Source: an uncultured Chloroflexia bacterium (GTDB taxonomy: Bacteria > Chloroflexota > Limnocylindria > Limnocylindrales > CSP1-4). Taken from it: a DNA stretch of 64,000 nt. The translations under genes and the position numbers were made by a program. Shown here in pieces: positions 6,791 through 23,569 of this stretch. Each line of letters opens with the position of its first letter. The first letter of the stretch is position 1. Location of the stretch: NCBI GenBank assembly GCA_963808895.1, contig CAWEHL010000001.1, positions 515,560-579,559 of the forward strand, written 5' to 3'. The notes below the pieces were generated by a model. It was not told the DNA's origin. It saw only the letters and a list, made by a program, of their open reading frames with translations, and made no database searches.

Positions 6791-7813
6791 GTGCGGATCC
6801 TCGTCACCGGCGCGGCCGGCTTCATCAACGGGTATCTCGTCCCCGAGCTGCTCGAGGCCGGTCACGAGGTGATCGGTCTTGACGACTTCTCGAAGTACGG
6901 TCGCCTCGCCAAGTCGTACGACGCCCACCCCTGCTATCGGTTCGTCGAGGGCGACGCGAAGGACACGGCGTTGATGCGCGAGCTGGCCAGCGATGTCGAC
7001 CAGGTCGTCGCATCCGCCGCGATGATCGGCGGGATCAGCTACTTCCACGAGTTCGCCTACGACCTGATCGCCGAGAACGAGCGGATCCTGGCGTCGACCT
7101 TCGACGCGGCGATCGCCGCCCATCGCGACGGGCACCTGCAGCGGATCATCGTGATGTCGTCATCGATGGTCTACGAGTCCGCCACGGTGTTCCCAACGCC
7201 CGAGGGCGCACAGCTGAGCTCACCGCCGCCGATCTCGACGTATGGGTTCCAGAAGCTCGCATCGGAGTACTTCGCGAGCGGCGCCTGGGAGCAGTACCAG
7301 CTGCCGTACACGATCGTCCGACCGTTCAATTGCGTCGGGATCGGCGAGCGCCGAGCGCTTCGCGACACGGACATCATGTCCGGAAACGTGAAACTCGCCC
7401 TGTCCCACGTCGTGCCCGATCTGGCGCTGAAGGTGCTCAAGGGCCAGGATCCCCTGCACATCCTCGGTGACGGGTCGCAGGTTCGCCACTACACCTACGG
7501 CGGCGACCTCGCCCACGGGATCCGACTCGCGATGGAGTCGGAGCGGATGGTCAACGAGGACGTCAACCTGTCGACGGCGCGGTCGACGACGGTCCTCGAA
7601 CTGGCGCAGGCGATCTGGCGAAACATCCACGGCGCGGATCGGGAGTTTCGCTACGTATCCGACCCGCCATTCGAGCACGACGTCCAGATGCGTGTCCCCG
7701 ATGTCCGCAAGGCCAAGGATCTCCTCGATTTCGAGGCCACGACGACCCTCGACGAGATGCTCGACGAGGTCATCCCGTGGATCCGCGGCGAAGTGGAGGC
7801 CGGCCGGCTGTGA
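6791..7813 (+). CDS. NAD-dependent epimerase/dehydratase (extended SDR)
   Basis: GTG start 9 nt after GGAGAG. VTGAAGFINGYL, catalytic STYGFQK (YxxxK). Confidence 0.85.
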   Translation: MRILVTGAAGFINGYLVPELLEAGHEVIGLDDFSKYGRLAKSYDAHPCYRFVEGDAKDTALMRELASDVDQVVASAAMIGGISYFHEFAYDLIAENERILASTFDAAIAAHRDGHLQRIIVMSSSMVYESATVFPTPEGAQLSSPPPISTYGFQKLASEYFASGAWEQYQLPYTIVRPFNCVGIGERRALRDTDIMSGNVKLALSHVVPDLALKVLKGQDPLHILGDGSQVRHYTYGGDLAHGIRLAMESERMVNEDVNLSTARSTTVLELAQAIWRNIHGADREFRYVSDPPFEHDVQMRVPDVRKAKDLLDFEATTTLDEMLDEVIPWIRGEVEAGRL

Positions 7814-16134: not shown

Positions 16135-18165
16135 TCACGCCTCGCGTACCGCTGGCACGAACCACCCGACCAGACCGGCTGCTGCGGTGACCAGCCCGAA
16201 GGCCGCGATCACCGTCGTCACCCCGACCGCTTCCGCGAGGACGCCACCGAGGCCGATCGCGAGCGTCATCGCCCCGAACACGAGAGAGAACCGGAATCCG
16301 ACGACCCGCCCGATCAGATTGCCGGGCGTCCGCTCCTGGAAGAGGGTCTGGCTCGGGATGATGAACAACATGTTCGCGATCCCGATCCCGAACGCGATCG
16401 ACAGGACGACGCCGAGGTTGCCGGACAGCGCCATGACCGTCGTCAGCAAGCCGAGCACGACGTAGCCCACGATGATCATCCGGCCCTTCGCGAGACGCAC
16501 GCCGACCAGCCCGATGACGAAGCCGCCGATCAGGTTGCCGGCACCCTGGCTGCCCTCGATGAAGCCGTAGACCGCGCGCCAGTCGAAGCCCTGCCCGCCG
16601 AAGACGTGCTCTGCGAACACCGCGGTCTGGCCGATCAGTACGCCGACGGTCAGCTGCGCCACGACGGCGAGGAGCGTGTTCGCGAGCAGCACAGGCTCGT
16701 TCCGGAGGAACCGCCAGCCCGTCAGGAGTTCCTCGCGGAACCCGGCCGCGTCGGCGTCGGATCGGGCACCCGTCGGCGCCTCGGACTGGACGGGACGCGG
16801 GATCAGCGTGCTGAGCAGCAGTGCCGAGGCGAGGTAGGTCGCCCCGTCGAACCAGAACGCGATCGACACCGCGTCGGCTACAACGGCGACGAACAGCCCG
16901 GCCAGTGGAAAGCCGATGACATCCGCCAAGGTCTCGCCGATCCACAACGCCGAGTTGGCGGTCAGCAGCTCGTCCTCTCGGACGAGGCGAGGCAGGATGG
17001 CGATGCGCGCCGGGCGGAAGAAGATCGAGATCGTCGTCAGCAGGAAGGCAAGCGGATAGACGAGCCAGATGTTGGCCGTGGCGGCGATCGGCATGATGAA
17101 CACGACCGCTGCGCGGAGGATGTCGCTGACGACGAGGACCTCGCGGTGGTCCCAGCGGTCGACGAGCGTCCCGGCGATCGGCCCGAACAGCAGGTTCGGC
17201 AGCGTCGCCGACACGAATACGAGCGCGACGGCGATCGGTGAACCCGTCAGCACGAAGACGATGGCTGCGATGGCGACCTGGTGGACGCGGTCGCCGAAGA
17301 GCGAGATCAGCTGGCCCGACCAGAGGGCGCTGAACGAGCCATTGAGCGCCAGCCGGACATACGGGTGGCGGCGAAGCCTCGCGAGGACGTCCGGTGACAG
17401 TCCGGGGATCGAGATCGGCCGGGTCGGCGGCGCTTCGACGACGAGAGCTGGCGTTGCGCCGGGGCCGGCCAGCCGTTGGCGATCGGCGCCGAGGACCGTC
17501 GGTCGTTGGAGCGATGCCGACTGCTCGAGGCCCGGAGCGAGGCCGGACGGTCGATAGCCGATCGCGCGGTCGGCAGCGAGGCGCCGCCGCAGGTCGGCGT
17601 CCTGCTGCTCCTCGGTCGGCGTCGGGACGCGGACCACGCCGGCGAACAGGAAGAAGGCGAGCCCGAGCCCCAGGAAGAGGTCGCCGAGGGAGTACACGTT
17701 CTGGATGAACGAGATCGGGACGGGGATGACGTCGCCGAGGATCAGCAGTCGCCCGAGGAAGTCCTGTGCGCTCGGGTCGACGATCACGTGGAACGAGCGC
17801 GTGACGTCGGCAGGCGTGAGCCCGGCGTACGCGAGCGCGGGCTCCCAGATCGGCATGTACCCGCCGTTGACCAGGATCACGAGCCCGTTCGAGAGCACGC
17901 CGAGGAAGGCGAGGCTCAGACCGGGGTAGGTCCGGTTGACCCAGAGAGGGATCAGCAGCACGCCAAAGGCGGCGACGAGCAGCGGGAGGCGCAACGCCTC
18001 GACGACGTCGATGCCCGCGTTGAGCGCGGCCTCAGTCGCGAAGCGGAGCACGAGCGCTGCGACGAGCAAGCCCGTCCAGCGAAGCTGGATCTCGGCGAGG
18101 TTGCGAAGGCGCCCGCCGGCGAGAAGCCCGAGGACGAGCCCGAGCAGGATCCCGCCGATCAGCAT
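16135..18165 (-). CDS. DUF5317-like membrane domain fused to an MFS transporter (MFS_3/EntS-like)
   Basis: The N-terminal ~190 aa (GRLRNLAEIQLRW..., NGLVILVNGGYMPIW, DVIPVP) resemble DUF5317. These are followed by about 12 TM MFS spans. Only 4 nt separate it from the upstream HD-GYP stop. Confidence 0.75.
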   Translation of the reverse strand: MLIGGILLGLVLGLLAGGRLRNLAEIQLRWTGLLVAALVLRFATEAALNAGIDVVEALRLPLLVAAFGVLLIPLWVNRTYPGLSLAFLGVLSNGLVILVNGGYMPIWEPALAYAGLTPADVTRSFHVIVDPSAQDFLGRLLILGDVIPVPISFIQNVYSLGDLFLGLGLAFFLFAGVVRVPTPTEEQQDADLRRRLAADRAIGYRPSGLAPGLEQSASLQRPTVLGADRQRLAGPGATPALVVEAPPTRPISIPGLSPDVLARLRRHPYVRLALNGSFSALWSGQLISLFGDRVHQVAIAAIVFVLTGSPIAVALVFVSATLPNLLFGPIAGTLVDRWDHREVLVVSDILRAAVVFIMPIAATANIWLVYPLAFLLTTISIFFRPARIAILPRLVREDELLTANSALWIGETLADVIGFPLAGLFVAVVADAVSIAFWFDGATYLASALLLSTLIPRPVQSEAPTGARSDADAAGFREELLTGWRFLRNEPVLLANTLLAVVAQLTVGVLIGQTAVFAEHVFGGQGFDWRAVYGFIEGSQGAGNLIGGFVIGLVGVRLAKGRMIIVGYVVLGLLTTVMALSGNLGVVLSIAFGIGIANMLFIIPSQTLFQERTPGNLIGRVVGFRFSLVFGAMTLAIGLGGVLAEAVGVTTVIAAFGLVTAAAGLVGWFVPAVREA

Positions 18166-18169
18166 CGCG

Positions 18170-19657
18170 TCATGATGCTGGAGCGGAAGCTCGTGGCGTC
18201 AGGCTTGTTCGGGGGCTTGCGAGGTGGCGGGGAGCGAGCTCGCCGAGACGGTCGCTGGACCAGTGCCGGTCGCCGGCTGGTTCGCTCAGGCGCGTCGCGG
18301 CAGCCTGACCAAGGATCGGGATCGGCCGAGGCTGGACCGTCCGGCCCGGGTCGGCGACACCCTCGACGTGGTGGGTCCTGACGAAGGCGTCGACGACCAC
18401 TGGATCGAACTGGATGCCGGCGAACTTGCGCAGCTCCGCCAGCGCCTGTTCGGCGGTCAGCGGGGTCATCCGGTAGGGGCGGGCGGCCGTCATGGCTTCG
18501 AAGGCATCGGCGACGTGGAGGACCCGGGCGAGCTTGGGGATCTCGTCACCGATCAGCCGGTCGGGGTAGCCGGAGCCGTTGTACCACTCGTGGTGGTGGC
18601 GGATGATCGGCAGCTCGGGGGCGAGCTTGGTGACCGGGGCGATGATCTGCGCACCCAGGACGGGATGCGCGTTCATGATCATCCGCTCCTCCTTGTTCAG
18701 GCGCTCCTGTTTGTTCAGCACCCGGTCCGGGACGCCGATCTTGCCGACGTCGTGGAGCAGGCCGCCCCACTCCAGCGCTTCGAGCTCGGCGTCGTTGACG
18801 TGCATGACCCGCCCGATATCGACCGCGATCTCCTTCACCCGATGGCTGTGCTTGGCCGTGAACGGGTCGCGCTTGTCGACGGCCTCGGCGAGCGCGCCGA
18901 TCGTCTGGGTGAACATCTCGCGCATCTCGATGAAGCGCGCGTAGGCCAGCCGGGTCGAATACAGCGGGACGGCGAATAGGGCGGTCGCCCACCACTGAAC
19001 GGCGTAGACGACCGTCATCAGCCAGGACAGGGGCGCCAGGGCAATCATGCTTCCGAGGATCCCGCGGGTGTCGGCGCGCAAAGCTTCGAGGACCGACTGG
19101 TTCGTTCGGAGGCTTAGCAGTACGAACGCGAGCCCGACGTTCAAGACTTGGAAGACGGCTGCCGCCACCATCGCGGAGGCGAAGTCAGTGAAAGGACCAA
19201 GAGCCGGCGCGAGCTCGAGCCCGGCTTCCCGAACGACTCCCGCGACGATGGCAGGGATTACCAAGCACGCGTGATTGGCAAGAGACCCGTACCAGGGGAT
19301 GCGTCCGCGAAGCTCGCGCAGCTCGGTTGTGCCGATTGCCGCGACCCAACCACCGACCGCGGGGCCTCCGAGCATAAAGGAGGCCATGATCGGTGCCACT
19401 GCTACACCAATCTGCGAGCCGCGTGGCTGTTGCACCGGCCAGGCGGAAGCCAGCAGAGTAATTGCTGTCCACGCGAGGATGCCAAGAGCGACCTCCAACG
19501 GATCGGTTCCCGGAAGGCCAATCTCGACGGCGATCCCCGGTTTGGGCGGAAAAAGAAAAGTCGCGGTCACCAGCGCCAATGCGCCAATGACCACGACAGT
19601 CGCGACGTAAAGCTTGAGAGACTTAGGCATCGTTCTGGGACCAGCCACCTCCCTCAC
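18170..19657 (-). CDS. Membrane-anchored HD-GYP domain protein (c-di-GMP phosphodiesterase family)
   Basis: About 6-7 N-terminal TM spans, then HSHRV, GGLLHDVGKIGVPD and HHHEWYNGSGYPDRL. Alternative starts at GTG 19648 or ATG 19630. Confidence 0.9.
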   Translation of the reverse strand: MREVAGPRTMPKSLKLYVATVVVIGALALVTATFLFPPKPGIAVEIGLPGTDPLEVALGILAWTAITLLASAWPVQQPRGSQIGVAVAPIMASFMLGGPAVGGWVAAIGTTELRELRGRIPWYGSLANHACLVIPAIVAGVVREAGLELAPALGPFTDFASAMVAAAVFQVLNVGLAFVLLSLRTNQSVLEALRADTRGILGSMIALAPLSWLMTVVYAVQWWATALFAVPLYSTRLAYARFIEMREMFTQTIGALAEAVDKRDPFTAKHSHRVKEIAVDIGRVMHVNDAELEALEWGGLLHDVGKIGVPDRVLNKQERLNKEERMIMNAHPVLGAQIIAPVTKLAPELPIIRHHHEWYNGSGYPDRLIGDEIPKLARVLHVADAFEAMTAARPYRMTPLTAEQALAELRKFAGIQFDPVVVDAFVRTHHVEGVADPGRTVQPRPIPILGQAAATRLSEPAGDRHWSSDRLGELAPRHLASPRTSLTPRASAPAS

Positions 19658-19698
19658 TCTACGGCCAGAGCCGAGCAGTGGGTAATGGGCCTTCCGTA

Positions 19699-19782
19699 CT
19701 AGAAGCCCCTAAGAGAAGCCCCTCCAGCGAGCGCGACCATCGCGACGCTCGAAAGCGTGACGATGATCCGCATAAGTCGCAT
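19699..19782 (-). CDS. Candidate 27-aa hydrophobic mini-protein (MRLMRIIVTLSSVAMVALAGGASLRGF)
   Basis: ATG..TAG ORF 41 nt upstream of the HD-GYP gene. Below the ORF-track size cut-off, with no clear SD. Confidence 0.15.
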   Translation of the reverse strand: MRLMRIIVTLSSVAMVALAGGASLRGF

Positions 19783-19798
19783 TTTCACCGGGCGGGTC

Positions 19799-19828
19799 CT
19801 ACCAGCCCTTGACCGATTCGGGAGCCAT
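19799..19828 (-). CDS. Candidate 9-codon leader ORF (MAPESVKGW) with a strong SD
   Basis: GAAGGAGGAA (19834..19843, minus strand), then 5 nt, then ATG. It lies immediately downstream of the terminator hairpin. Confidence 0.2.
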   Translation of the reverse strand: MAPESVKGW

Positions 19829-19861
19829 CGGGCTTCCTCCTTCTCGGCCCTCGTGCTCTGG

Positions 19862-19898
19862 GAACACGAAAACCGACCTGACTTAAAAGTCGGTCGGT
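19862..19898 (-). terminator. Intrinsic terminator/attenuator hairpin with U-rich tail
   Basis: Minus strand ACCGACCGACUUUUAAGUCAGGUCGGU (10 bp with one bulge) followed by UUUCGUGUU. Confidence 0.6.
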
Positions 19899-19978
19899 TG
19901 CACTAGTCGCTCCGTCCCACCCTAAGTGCCCAATTTCAGGTGGGGCATCGCCGCGTCCGAGCGTCTTGACGGTTCTTC

Positions 19979-19996
19979 CTAGTACTGGGGTACTAG
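19979..19996. promoter_or_regulatory. Perfect inverted repeat CTAGTAC-N4-GTACTAG (operator or 5' RNA hairpin)
   Basis: 7-bp arms; lies just downstream of the predicted -10 at 20008..20013. Confidence 0.45.
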
Positions 19997-20007
19997 CAAG
20001 TGGCCGG

Positions 20008-20037
20008 ACTGTAGGGATGCCTAACTAAGCCGGTCAA
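20008..20037 (-). promoter_or_regulatory. Putative promoter TTGACC-N18-TACAGT for the HD-GYP operon leader
   Basis: Minus strand reads gtaTTGACCggcttagttaggcatcccTACAGTcc, 21 nt downstream of the regulator's stop codon. Confidence 0.4.
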
Positions 20038-20057
20038 TACGGAACCTTACCTATCCG

Positions 20058-23000
20058 TCACAGTGCGTCGAGCGGCGGAGGCTCCACTCCTACCTCGTCA
20101 CGCATGACCGCGGCGTAGTGCGCGTATTGCTCGGCCGCGGCGGAATGCGCACCCGTTACCCGGTATAGACGGAGCAGGCAAATCTCGATCTGCTCTGCGG
20201 TCGGATCAGCGTCCAAGGCACGCCGTGCAATCGTGATGCCGCGGTCGTAATGACCTGTAGTGAAGTCGTCAAGGACGGACCGTTCGACGATCTCTAGGTA
20301 CGACGCATGGAGATTGTCTCGATAAGCCGCGGCCCATTCTTCGTACTCAAAATCCAGGGCGAATCTGCCCCGGTACAGGCCCGTAAGGCGGTCGACGTCA
20401 TCCGGAGAGGGCTTAGGGGGCAATTCCCGAATTAGCGCTTTGCAGGCTGCACTTCGACTCGACACTAGTTCGGGGTCGAGCCAGACGACGTCCGAGTCGT
20501 GATGGACGTACCCCGGCGTCAGATCGTCCGAATAGGCCTCCTCAAGGACTCGTCGGAGGAAGTAGATCGTCTGATTGAGTGAGTTCACGGCGACTTCTGG
20601 ATCCAGGTCCGGCCAGAGAGCATCGAGTACTTGGTCTCGCGTCGCCGACATCTGCGGCCGAGTGATAAGGAAGCAGAGCATCGCGAGCACTTTTCTTCGA
20701 ATCGCTGAACCGAGAACGCTTCGGGTCCCAATCTCCACCGTTACCCGGCCTTGATCCTCCACGTGGACCACGTCCGCAAGACGTCTTGCGATTGACCGGC
20801 CGAGGGTCATTGCATCGGGGCGGCGGCGAGAAGACCTAGCGAGCCGCCGCAGACGCGGGATGTCTGAGCGATCTCCGATCGCCTCGAGCATCCGCGCTGC
20901 GGGTATGTTCACGTCGGCCGCCTCCTTGTCGAGAACCAGCCGGAGAGCTGCTTTCCACCGCTCGGGATGGCGGTCTCCCGCTCTGTGCAGCGCGGCTACC
21001 GACCCCTCATAAAGTCGGGGCATGTGTGGGACCAGATCCTCGGCTAGAAAGGTCAGGTGCCAAGGCGCCGCACGTTCTATGAGGCAGATCGTGTCACTCA
21101 GGGTTTCAGGACTTCCCAACGTTGCCAGCAGAAGTTCGCCTAGGCGTCGGGTTGCAGTTGCGCCTTGGGATTTCGCTGCCTGTGTCGCTTTTCGCAGAAG
21201 TACCGGCGCCTGAAGGTCATCGCCGATTACAGCGAGATGGGCGACAGTCATGTCAAAGGACGCATGAGCGCCAATGACACTCGTGAGGCCGGGGACGAAT
21301 CCGCTCAGTGCCTTCTCAGCAGAGACAGCGTCTCGAACGCGGATCGCGATCCGAGCTTTGGCGATAGCCACGGCTCGGCGATCGGCGATTGTCTGGAGTG
21401 AGTCATCGCTAATCCGATCAAGCAGGGCTAGCGCCGTAAGGTGGGATTCATAAGCATCGAAGGCATCCGCGGCCTCAGCAACTGCTTCGTTCGGAACGTA
21501 TCGCGTTGATTCGGACGTCATCCGCGCCGCAAGACCGCGCGCATCGGCATCCATCCCGAGCCGCAACATGATCGCGGCTCTGACCGCACGCGCAGATGAA
21601 TGCTCGATGTCCCCGGTCGTGGACTCGAGGGCATCGATTGCCTCGTTAGCCTCGGCAAGGGCATCCTCGACGCGATCCTGAACAACCGAATTCATCGCCA
21701 AATTGAGCATGGTTACGCCGTAGTAGTGCGATGTAGATGCCCGCTGGACATCAGCCATCGCGCGGAGCCGCCGATTGATCGAGTCGACGTCGGCTTCTGA
21801 GCTTGCCGTCAGGATCGCTGCGCTAACGCCAGCTATAGATATGAGATTTGGGTCAAGGGTGATCCTCTCGAGGTGTCTTGCGAGCTCGAGCGCGCGCTCG
21901 CCGTTTCCGAAGTTGAAGTTCGCGGCCAACAGGTTCAGCAAGGCGTGATCCCGTTGGACGGCATCTGTGACGCCGGAGTCGAGGACCGCCTGGCTGGCAG
22001 CGATCGCGGCCTCGTAGTCGCCCTGCTGCATGTCGACGCGGCTCAGGATCAGGTCGAAGCCGGCCGGCCGGCGCTCGTGACTGATCGGTCCGATGAACGC
22101 CTCGGCGAGCGCGTATTGCCCGTCCCCCATGATCGTCGGGATGGCGCTCGCGACGACGCCGAGCATCGCCTCGGTATCCCCCGCCTCGCGATAGTGATGC
22201 GCGGCGGTCTTCCAGTCGGTACTCGCTGACGCGATCGCGGCTTGTCGATGCAGCGCCGCGACAGCGTCGGGACCATCCATCGACCGAAGGCGCGCCTCGA
22301 GGAAGCCTCGAACGAGCGGGTGGTACCGCTGGTGGGTCCGCGGCGCGCCGGACTGTCGGCTGAGCAAGGTCAGGCGCTCGGCGGCTGTGGTCAGCCGTGC
22401 GACGTCGGAACTTTCGCGACCCGAGACGACCTCGGCCAGTTCAGGCGTGACGACCTGGAGGATCGACGTTTCCATCAGGAATCGCTGCAACTCGTCATCG
22501 AGATCGCCCACGACTTCCTCGGCGAGATAGTCGTAGAGGTCGTGGTCGGCGCCGTTGAGCGTCCTGACGAACCGACGGATCTCGGTCGGCGACCGGTCGC
22601 GCAGCGCGGCTTGGACGAGCTGTAACGACGCGATCCAGCCCTCCGTCCGGACAGCGAGATCCTCCAGCACGTCCGGGTCGATCCGCCGACCGTAGGTCTC
22701 GGTGAACAGCTGGGCAGTCTCCGAAGCATCGAAGCGAAGGTCATCGGTGGCGAGTTCCGCGACTTCGCCGACGGACCGGAGCTTCGACAGCGGGATCGCA
22801 GGCGGTCTTCGGCTCGCGAAGACGACCGTCATGCGCTCCGGAGCGCGGACGACGAGCTCGCGTGCGATGACGCGCGCGTCCGGCGCGTCATCGACGAGGT
22901 GGAAGTCATCGAAGATGAGGACGGCGCCGGAGCCGGCGATGGCCGGCAACTCTTCGAGGAACGTCGAGAGCGCCGCCTCGCGAGTCGTCCCGGCGGTCCC

Positions 23001-23492
23001 GGCATCGGCCAGGACCGCGGCGGTCGCTGGTGCGAAGGCCGGGTCGTGCTCGCGGCCGGCAGCGACCAGGTGATGGAGCATCGTGACCCAGTCGCGGTCG
23101 TCAGGATCGAGTCGGTACCAGAGCGTCCGCATCCGCGTGCGCCGAGCGAAATCGGCGAGGAGTGTCGTCTTGCCATACCCGGCGTCAGCGAGGACGAGGA
23201 CGACGCGACCGTGGATCTTGGCACGCAGCCAGTCCAGCAGACGTGGTCGTTCGAGCGTCTCATCGCGGAGCGCTGGACGCTGGACCTTCGCGATCTGGAT
23301 CGGGTAGCCGCTGACTTCGTCGCTCAGGTGGGCACTCCTGGACGGCGTCACCCCGGCCATATCGTGGGTCCCTACCGGGATCTGCTGAGAGGTGACGAAC
23401 TCCTGCGGAGACCGGCGGGGATCGGGGGGCGCGAACGATATCGACCGCTCGCGCGCCGTGTCAACGGAGCCGAGGGAGGGGCGGTCGGGCAT
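20058..23492 (-). CDS. Large STAND-type regulator: MalT-like ATPase + helical repeats + C-terminal SARP module (OmpR-type wHTH + BTAD)
   Basis: Walker A LADAGYGKTTLL, Walker B VLIFDDFH, MalT-like WIASLQLV. C-terminus RKVLAMLCFLITRP...RDQVLDALWPD...LNQTIYFLRRVL then LYRGRFALDFEYEEWA...LLRLYRVTGAHSAAAEQY. Confidence 0.8.
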   Translation of the reverse strand: MPDRPSLGSVDTARERSISFAPPDPRRSPQEFVTSQQIPVGTHDMAGVTPSRSAHLSDEVSGYPIQIAKVQRPALRDETLERPRLLDWLRAKIHGRVVLVLADAGYGKTTLLADFARRTRMRTLWYRLDPDDRDWVTMLHHLVAAGREHDPAFAPATAAVLADAGTAGTTREAALSTFLEELPAIAGSGAVLIFDDFHLVDDAPDARVIARELVVRAPERMTVVFASRRPPAIPLSKLRSVGEVAELATDDLRFDASETAQLFTETYGRRIDPDVLEDLAVRTEGWIASLQLVQAALRDRSPTEIRRFVRTLNGADHDLYDYLAEEVVGDLDDELQRFLMETSILQVVTPELAEVVSGRESSDVARLTTAAERLTLLSRQSGAPRTHQRYHPLVRGFLEARLRSMDGPDAVAALHRQAAIASASTDWKTAAHHYREAGDTEAMLGVVASAIPTIMGDGQYALAEAFIGPISHERRPAGFDLILSRVDMQQGDYEAAIAASQAVLDSGVTDAVQRDHALLNLLAANFNFGNGERALELARHLERITLDPNLISIAGVSAAILTASSEADVDSINRRLRAMADVQRASTSHYYGVTMLNLAMNSVVQDRVEDALAEANEAIDALESTTGDIEHSSARAVRAAIMLRLGMDADARGLAARMTSESTRYVPNEAVAEAADAFDAYESHLTALALLDRISDDSLQTIADRRAVAIAKARIAIRVRDAVSAEKALSGFVPGLTSVIGAHASFDMTVAHLAVIGDDLQAPVLLRKATQAAKSQGATATRRLGELLLATLGSPETLSDTICLIERAAPWHLTFLAEDLVPHMPRLYEGSVAALHRAGDRHPERWKAALRLVLDKEAADVNIPAARMLEAIGDRSDIPRLRRLARSSRRRPDAMTLGRSIARRLADVVHVEDQGRVTVEIGTRSVLGSAIRRKVLAMLCFLITRPQMSATRDQVLDALWPDLDPEVAVNSLNQTIYFLRRVLEEAYSDDLTPGYVHHDSDVVWLDPELVSSRSAACKALIRELPPKPSPDDVDRLTGLYRGRFALDFEYEEWAAAYRDNLHASYLEIVERSVLDDFTTGHYDRGITIARRALDADPTAEQIEICLLRLYRVTGAHSAAAEQYAHYAAVMRDEVGVEPPPLDAL

Positions 23493-23569
23493 GGGGTCAT
23501 GGTGGCGTCAGGCGCTCAACCGGCGATTAGCTGCGACGACTCACCGAGGCGCATGACCGTCGGATAGCG

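Follow-up and report, generated by a model that had tools for sequence, protein, structure and literature searches.

A MalT-type STAND regulator with a C-terminal SARP unit adjoins a c-di-GMP-II riboswitch and an HD-GYP gene in Limnocylindria

We analysed a 64,000-nucleotide (nt) stretch of DNA, hereafter the window, from an uncultured member of the class Limnocylindria of the Chloroflexota (GenBank assembly GCA_963808895.1, contig CAWEHL010000001.1, positions 515,560 to 579,559). The locus of interest consists of a gene for a large transcriptional regulator, a leader with a riboswitch for cyclic di-GMP (c-di-GMP) and a gene for an HD-GYP phosphodiesterase. All genes, RNA elements and promoters of the window described here lie on the minus strand, and coordinates are window positions. 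In brief, the regulator is encoded by an intact open reading frame (ORF) of 1144 amino acids (aa) at 20058..23492, the longest form called, with its stop codon at 20060-20058. It is a STAND transcription factor that looks functional and follows the plan of MalT and the LAL regulators, with an NTPase and oligomerisation module, a winged-helix arm and a helical sensor. In place of the LuxR helix-turn-helix (HTH) that ends the MalT plan it has a complete SARP unit, made up of an OmpR-type winged helix and a BTAD.

The N-terminal half of the regulator carries the Walker A motif GYGKTTLL at residues 105-112 and the Walker B motif VLIFDDFH at residues 191-198, both as quoted in an earlier note on this DNA. 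Their cores, GYGKTT (residues 105-110, 23163-23180) and IFDD (residues 193-196, with the DD pair at 22905-22910), are invariant in 27 homologs, and the protein has the GxxGxGK[ST] and hhhhDD signatures of STAND P-loop NTPases. Pfam places AAA_16 at residues 84-206. The NCBIfam MalT model PRK04841 aligns to residues 68-540 with 197 bits, short of its equivalog cut-off of 537 bits. A profile of the 27 homologs, compared with the PDB, matched the nucleotide-binding oligomerisation domain (NOD) of MalT (8bob, E 4.6e-40, profile positions 69-450) and, over residues 451-716, tetratricopeptide repeat (TPR) proteins such as the LapB TPR. The AlphaFold model (predicted local distance difference test, pLDDT, 83) is all-helical from residue 392 to 895, after which come the strand-helix pattern of an OmpR-type winged helix and then further helices. 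The top match of the whole model in Foldseek was again the MalT NOD 8bob (E 1.7e-12), accompanied by an archaeal STAND-TPR protein and by MalT domain III (1hz4, TMt 0.61, E 1.9e-4). Taken together, the sequence and structure matches delimit a MalT-like NOD module at residues 68-450 (22143..23291) and an all-helical, TPR/SUPR-like repeat sensor at residues 451-895 (20808..22142). The sensor is the fastest-evolving part of the regulator, with a rate of nonsynonymous substitution (dN) 3-4 times that of the NOD.

The C-terminal SARP unit covers residues ~896-1144 (20061..20807), with the winged helix at ~20457-20780 and the BTAD at ~20073-20408. Both domains that the earlier note had expected at this end were matched by Pfam: BTAD at residues 1029-1140 with 48 bits (cut-off 22.1), and Trans_reg_C at residues 933-986 with 26.1 bits, a borderline match 0.1 bit under its cut-off of 26.2. 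Both of the short relatives scanned exceed the Trans_reg_C threshold (31.5 and 34.1 bits), and the domain is among the precomputed Pfam hits of many orthologs. No match to a LuxR/GerE HTH was found in the regulator at E <= 0.1 in the Pfam scan. Since a fold search with the whole protein is swamped by TPR proteins and blind to the SARP end, the last 250 aa were modelled separately. With this model (pLDDT 91.7), AfsR and EmbR were the sole significant PDB matches (E 4e-9 to 3e-7, TM 0.55-0.61), and the same 250 aa are colinear with the SARP unit of AfsR (AfsR residues 50-253, E 5e-6). The order NTPase, helical sensor, winged helix and BTAD is thus borne out by Pfam, the PDB profile, the AfsR alignment and the models.

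This order is the opposite of that in classical SARPs, as had been claimed, and indeed of that in every class of a 2024 review, where the SARP unit of small, medium, large and SARP-LAL regulators is always N-terminal (PMC10972967); here it lies at residues ~896-1144 of 1144. Text searches of the literature returned no paper on a C-terminal SARP, and none relevant on Limnocylindria and c-di-GMP.

Three known systems share parts of the regulator. With MalT it has in common the order NTPase/oligomerisation module, helical sensor and DNA-binding end, a homologous NOD (the 8bob and PRK04841 matches above) and a sensor that resembles MalT domain III in fold. It differs from MalT in that its DNA-binding end is a SARP unit of ~250 aa and not a LuxR/GerE HTH, its score lies far below the MalT equivalog cut-off, its sensor is longer (~445 aa), and no maltose genes were found among the neighbouring genes scanned. 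The SARP-LAL regulators of Streptomyces (PimR, SanG, FilR) combine the same two modules, a SARP unit and an LAL/MalT-type ATP-binding half without the LuxR HTH, in the opposite order, beginning with the SARP unit (PMC10972967). In Actinomycetota they activate the antibiotic gene clusters in which they are encoded, whereas the regulator described here belongs to a c-di-GMP locus in Chloroflexota. The regulator, a MalT/LAL chassis fitted with a SARP output, mirrors the SARP-LALs. The third relative is AfsR, a SARP controlled by NOD and TPR and activated by ATP (PMC10936776), which together with EmbR of Mycobacterium tuberculosis provides the closest structures for the C-terminal unit. AfsR has the order SARP, NB-ARC-type NOD and TPR, as against MalT-type NOD, sensor and SARP here. 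Both domain orders coexist in the genome under study: a classical large SARP of 1068 aa (winged helix-BTAD, AAA, TPR) is encoded on another contig (C4:96232-99438, plus strand) and is 27% identical to the regulator in the SARP part.

The genome contains one full-length copy of the regulator, which was found in 20 of 24 genomes of the same genus. In a phylum-wide sample searched at E <= 1e-60, the regulator was present in 13 of 15 genomes of its own family and in 11 of 15 of a second family of the class Limnocylindria, and in none of ~270 genomes of other families. A search of a protein collection clustered at 90% gave 982 hits; the best 120 are nearly all 1040-1165 aa long, apart from a handful of shorter fragments, and BTAD is listed for almost all of them. 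In a library clustered at 50%, colinearity over nearly the full length holds for ~90 of the best 150 representatives, with identities down to 31%. Relatives are encoded in at least 579 stretches of reference genomes, and the best 80 of these come nearly all from Chloroflexota, mostly Limnocylindria or Limnocylindrales. By the earlier note's own standard the reading would fail if the architecture were a common annotated family, and this is half the case: the family is large and carries only generic automatic names (e.g. 'BTAD domain-containing putative transcriptional regulator' or 'MalT / SARP family activator'), but it is unstudied and, in the phylum sample, was found in one class only. The regulator is vertically inherited across this class of soil Chloroflexota.

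A sister family with genomes of 1.0-1.4 Mb gave no full-length match to the regulator, and the riboswitch was found in 0 of 16 of its genomes. It encodes a short version of 575-644 aa with the NTPase and a C-terminal Trans_reg_C/BTAD and without the long sensor (L119:2836-4770 and L120:4538-6265). The short gene adjoins genes for a DsbA-like thioredoxin and a nucleoside hydrolase, with no riboswitch or HD-GYP gene at that place. Several loci from metagenome-assembled genomes with low contig numbers (L029, L030, L032-L036 and others) have multiple frame changes in both the regulator and HD-GYP genes, which are most simply long-read assembly indels rather than decay. One frameshifted locus (L044) was left out of one alignment.

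Between the regulator stop codon and the HD-GYP gene, a covariance-model search revealed a c-di-GMP-II riboswitch aptamer (Rfam RF01786) at 19967-19884. It covers model positions 1-84 and scores 64.1 bits, against a gathering threshold of 53.5. The earlier note, which mentions a leader palindrome, had overlooked it. The aptamer is the sole copy in the genome. It was found in 13 of 13 loci of the same genus with 58-69 bits, and all 17 RF01786 hits above the threshold in the genus adjoin the regulator gene. Among the 64 reference loci with enough flanking sequence, 63 have the aptamer core ~128 nt past the regulator stop codon, and the order STAND gene, riboswitch and HD-GYP gene is likewise kept in 63. 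The distance from the regulator down to the HD-GYP gene is 405-590 nt in nearly all loci whose flank is long enough. The linkage of regulator and HD-GYP gene also holds in 5 of 5 loci of the second family, where the regulator is just 27-34% identical. At the sole exception (L061, from position 7405 onward) there is neither riboswitch nor HD-GYP gene, and the sequence breaks exactly at the -35 hexamer into unrelated coding DNA of 76% GC, which suggests a rearrangement or a misassembly.

C-di-GMP riboswitches often precede genes for GGDEF, EAL or HD-GYP proteins. As in other c-di-GMP-II riboswitches placed before turnover genes, the aptamer scores above the Rfam gathering threshold and has an expression platform of the terminator type. 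What sets the present one apart is its invariable coupling to a gene for a dedicated STAND-SARP regulator and to a conserved mini-ORF ending in tryptophan. The terminator is a conserved intrinsic hairpin with a U tail at 19861..19895. Its left arm is the 3' strand of the aptamer stem P1, and P1 and the terminator share bases, so the two pairings are mutually exclusive. From this arrangement, ligand-stabilised P1 should prevent termination.

The mini-ORF (19799-19828, MAPESVKGW*) lies just 3' of the riboswitch terminator and has a strong Shine-Dalgarno sequence. Of the 90 aptamer sites in the loci compared, 63 are followed by a version of 9-12 codons that fits M(A/S/N)PExxxK(G/A/S)W-stop, those of the distant family included (MARQVIKGW*). 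It could be a regulatory leader peptide. A second small leader ORF (19699-19782) encodes a hydrophobic peptide of 27 aa, MRLMRIIVTLSSVAMVALAGGASLRGF*.

The palindrome of the earlier note, CTAGTAC-CCCA-GTACTAG at 19979..19996, is perfect and stands at the 5' end of the leader transcript. We take it to fit a 5' RNA hairpin better than a fixed-spacing operator or SARP site, because in distant loci the stem is lengthened by paired insertions. The promoter of the HD-GYP operon, TTGACC-N18-TACAGT at 20037-20008, is preceded directly 5' of the -35 by a conserved block, GATAGGTAAGGTtCCGTA, at 20055-20038. This promoter unit (20008..20055) begins 3 nt past the regulator stop codon, is conserved in 14 loci of the same genus and is a candidate target of the SARP unit. 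Promoter block and palindrome each have a single site in the genome of 3.54 Mb, and a distant regulon defined by either of them was rejected on these counts.

The HD-GYP gene (18170..19657) encodes a membrane-anchored phosphodiesterase, with HD_5 matched at 135.8 bits and both the HD and the GYP motifs present; it probably starts at the ATG at 19630. A gene for a DUF5317-MFS fusion protein (16135-18165) begins 4 nt past its stop codon and probably belongs to the same riboswitch-controlled operon.

The start of the regulator itself is probably further downstream than the 5' end of its ORF. Residues 1-60 have a pLDDT below 50, and alignments with homologs, distant ones included, begin only at residues 57-65, which points to an over-called 5' end. 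An in-frame CTG (23327, L56), kept in many relatives, stands 7 nt 3' of a conserved AGGAG (23339-23335), and coding conservation begins at this codon. This suggests a possible CTG start; in the present genome the ATG at 23360 (M45) would be the alternative. The first 44-55 annotated codons (23327-23492) are then probably 5' untranslated region. They contain the regulator's own promoter, TTGACA-N18-TATCGT at 23435..23464, with 10 of 12 consensus matches. In the 20 loci compared both hexamers are kept at the DNA level while the spacer varies, and a hypervariable sequence with indels of lengths other than multiples of three lies 3' of the promoter. By this alignment the seemingly conserved peptide 'VDT..SxSF' (residues 11-21) is the promoter read as protein. 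Upstream of it, ~20 loci share a non-coding block, CGCAGCTAATCG-N4-GgTGAGCGCC-N5-CACCATG-N6-ATGCC (23488-23537), that may be an operator or a site of autoregulation.

We suggest that the regulator activates the adjacent HD-GYP promoter and that the riboswitch adds a gate that opens with c-di-GMP. As a whole this is the best explanation of the locus, and we favour it with somewhat more than even confidence; for the adjacent promoter as the target of the SARP unit, taken by itself, we judge the chances about even. As in MalT and AfsR, the regulator would be released or oligomerised by ATP together with a signal that its fast-evolving helical sensor perceives. The SARP units would thereupon attach to the promoter 3 nt past the regulator stop codon, at the -35 or beside it, and recruit RNA polymerase. 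In the transcript, c-di-GMP would stabilise P1 of the aptamer, the terminator would be blocked, and transcription would read through into the HD-GYP gene. Two conditions would have to coincide for the enzyme to be made, the signal of the regulator and high c-di-GMP, so that c-di-GMP would be under a gated negative feedback. The families searched have either both the regulator and the riboswitch-HD-GYP unit or neither of them.

Several observations weigh against this mechanism. In SARP target promoters, direct repeats are spaced by 11 or 22 bp, and 8 bp separate the 3' repeat from the -10 (PMC10936776). The HD-GYP promoter does not clearly follow this rule: in 20008-20055 we found just a weak pattern with a period of ~10 nt (xGGTA/CCGTA/CCGgT). 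Its -35 (TTGACC) is good, whereas that of the AfsR-dependent afsS is poor (PMC10936776). The upstream block GATAGGTAAGGTtCCGTA is conserved in the regulator's own family and not in the second family of the class. The same-strand adjacency of the two genes could be mere read-through transcription, and the ON direction of the riboswitch is deduced from the mutually exclusive pairings alone.

Some of these points would be expected if the regulator controlled itself or distant genes and not the HD-GYP promoter, with the adjacency reflecting co-transcription or a shared theme, e.g. a sensor that reads c-di-GMP or a breakdown product. The conserved block at 23488-23537, just upstream of the regulator's own promoter, makes autoregulation or another target possible, the near-consensus -35 and the lack of clear 11-bp repeats at the HD-GYP promoter point the same way, and there is no terminator between the regulator stop codon and the leader. 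We nevertheless regard this alternative as rather unlikely. The -35 of the HD-GYP promoter borders on a conserved block with a single genomic site, neither conserved block has a further copy that would define a distant regulon, and regulator and riboswitch-HD-GYP unit share their presence and absence across the families searched. An anti-phage role of the Avs/NLR kind, with the variable sensor recognising a phage protein, would suit a STAND NTPase with a fast-evolving repeat sensor and is very improbable, as PADLOC matched 0 families, the output is a transcription-activator module and not a nuclease or other killing domain, the gene is a single full-length copy in a conserved core position, and dN/dS of the sensor (0.08-0.25, in one pair 0.44) gives no sign of diversifying selection.

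The regulator and HD-GYP genes share a further property, a patch of low GC content that the earlier note had detected by hand counts of single 60-nt lines. These counts (58.3, 53.3 and 60.0% GC) were exact. The region 18600-22200 has 62.1% GC against a genome mean of 69.7% (standard deviation 1.9, 3.6-kb windows), a dip of 7.6 points. With z = -3.9 it is among the lowest 0.23% of windows, so that the deviation expected of a GC plot was indeed seen. Lines of 60 nt with less than 60% GC make up 32% of the patch and 4% of the rest of the 64-kb window. Two regions of the genome are lower in GC, one of which contains the 16S rRNA gene. The lowest 3.6-kb region of the genome, with 52-55%, is at ~1,355,700-1,360,500 of contig C4, near the contig end. 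As described earlier, the patch takes in the leader together with the 3' half of the regulator gene on one side and the 5' part of the HD-GYP gene on the other.

The drop is limited to third codon positions, with GC1 and GC2 flat. In the regulator gene, GC content at third positions (GC3) falls from ~0.83 over codons 1-500 to 0.59-0.68 over codons 500-1144; the HD-GYP gene has 0.68 in its first 150 codons and 0.87-0.94 beyond. From GC3, orthologs and the rate of synonymous substitution (dS) we delimit a conserved low-GC3 block at 18982..21920, from about codon 525 of the STAND gene through the leader to about codon 225 of the HD-GYP gene. The shift to A/T-ending codons is broad (ATT 23-38% vs 1%, AAA 67% vs 6%), and codon use in the patch is like that of a genome of ~60% GC. 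Several simple causes were rejected. Amino-acid composition does not account for the dip, since GC3 alone falls. An overlapping gene is not indicated, with no ORF of at least 100 aa in other frames of 20058-21873. Control by a rare TTA codon in the manner of bldA does not fit either, as there is one TTA (codon 290, outside the block) and all A/T-ending codons are shifted. Low GC3 is not general to SARP genes, the genome's other ones having values of 0.72-0.93. Nor is it a by-product of protein divergence, as GC3 is low as well in the SARP domain, which is well conserved, and in HD-GYP residues 76-150.

The same dip is found at the same offset, 1.5-4.5 kb from the gene start, in 13 of 13 loci of the same genus and also in five loci of the second family with the regulator at 27-34% identity. 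In the mean of 59 intact orthologs, GC3 of the regulator is 0.83-0.88 over residues 50-500 and 0.66-0.73 over residues 525-1144, the SARP domain included, and GC3 of the HD-GYP gene is 0.68-0.72 over residues 1-225 and 0.84-0.89 beyond. The neighbours scanned, dnaB and lexA upstream and the DUF5317-MFS gene downstream, are core genes. No clean skew switch that would mark a replication origin beside dnaB was seen.

Substitution rates were obtained pairwise by the Nei-Gojobori method. The block, the SARP domain included, exceeds the NOD in dS by a factor of 1.2-2.2 in the three pairs that are least saturated. The values for NOD, sensor and SARP are 0.090, 0.157 and 0.124 in the closest pair (L045-L046), 0.48, 0.75 and 0.57 in L094-L107, and 0.65, 1.42 and 0.99 between the window and its nearest relative (L038). 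Such dS values are biased by skewed codon use and saturated in many pairs. The dN/dS values of 0.04-0.25 for NOD, sensor and SARP (0.28-0.44 in one outlier pair) indicate purifying selection along the whole length of the regulator. The proteins are thus firmly constrained, and what is relaxed is whatever keeps synonymous sites G/C-rich. The relaxed constraint surmised in the earlier note thus applies to synonymous sites and not to the protein. A swap of the sensor by recombination between close relatives was rejected, since identity profiles look alike against every relative and fit steady rate differences.

Judged from these comparisons, the low-GC patch is an old, conserved property of the locus, and not imported DNA or a sign of protein decay. 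Most likely, low GC3 reflects a locally weaker GC-favouring force, e.g. less recombination-linked biased gene conversion or weaker codon selection. Alternatively, selection on the DNA or mRNA could keep the block AT-richer, for a nucleoid protein that silences it until an activator acts, for easier promoter melting, or for slow translation of the sensor/SARP half and the membrane domain. It is attractive in that the block spans the intergenic promoter, covers the well-conserved SARP domain as well as variable ones, is kept across the class and is strongly enriched in the rare A/T-ending codons given above. We consider it unlikely, because dS is higher in the block, as relaxed synonymous pressure predicts, whereas selection for particular sequences predicts the opposite; also, no specific rare codon stands out (there is one TTA), and no conserved DNA motif was seen within the coding part.

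The foreign origin hinted at in the earlier note, i.e. a cassette of the regulator 3' half, the leader and the HD-GYP 5' part acquired from a donor of lower GC, is largely refuted and in our estimate highly improbable. It would agree with the 7.6-point deficit, the codon use of a ~60% GC genome and patch edges that ignore gene boundaries. However, the 13 loci of the genus all share the offset of the dip, and so do distant loci of the class at 27-50% protein identity, a time long enough for amelioration; the synteny is conserved in 63 of 64 loci, the neighbours are core genes, and the N- and C-terminal parts of the regulator are colinear with one family throughout. As the earlier note had already remarked of integrases and att-like repeats, none turned up: no integrase domain was matched in the six neighbouring ORFs scanned (two of the six have no Pfam match at all), there is no tRNA gene between 8 and 34 kb, and no att-like or flanking repeats were seen.

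Returning to the regulator, all parts of the locus could, quite tentatively, form a two-key circuit without a described counterpart. An ATP-driven STAND receptor with its SARP unit at the 'wrong' end would fire the adjacent promoter, and a c-di-GMP-ON riboswitch would pass the transcript on into the HD-GYP operon, with the Trp-terminated leader ORF of 9-12 codons perhaps adding a third input. The sensor of the regulator and the membrane sensor of the enzyme would be the fast-evolving parts of one cassette, and the class-wide low GC3 and raised dS the mark of a stable local regime of mutation or recombination. If true, the cassette would offer an exceptionally clean natural system in which to test biased gene conversion in bacteria. 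In any case, a sharp drop in GC across gene boundaries can, as this locus shows, be old and vertically inherited, a caution against calling every such dip an island. A block with raised dS and strong protein constraint is also a possible test case for the forces that maintain GC content.

Work on SARPs and on MalT/LAL regulators is extensive, but has dealt only with N-terminal SARP units. Structures of AfsR explain how an N-terminal SARP is restrained by the NOD and TPR downstream of it, and the reversed natural order described here tests whether this logic of autoinhibition and oligomerisation depends on domain order. The Limnocylindria of this study are known here only from uncultured metagenome-assembled genomes. 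The regulator, tied to a c-di-GMP riboswitch and an HD-GYP gene, offers a testable entry into the c-di-GMP control of this lineage.

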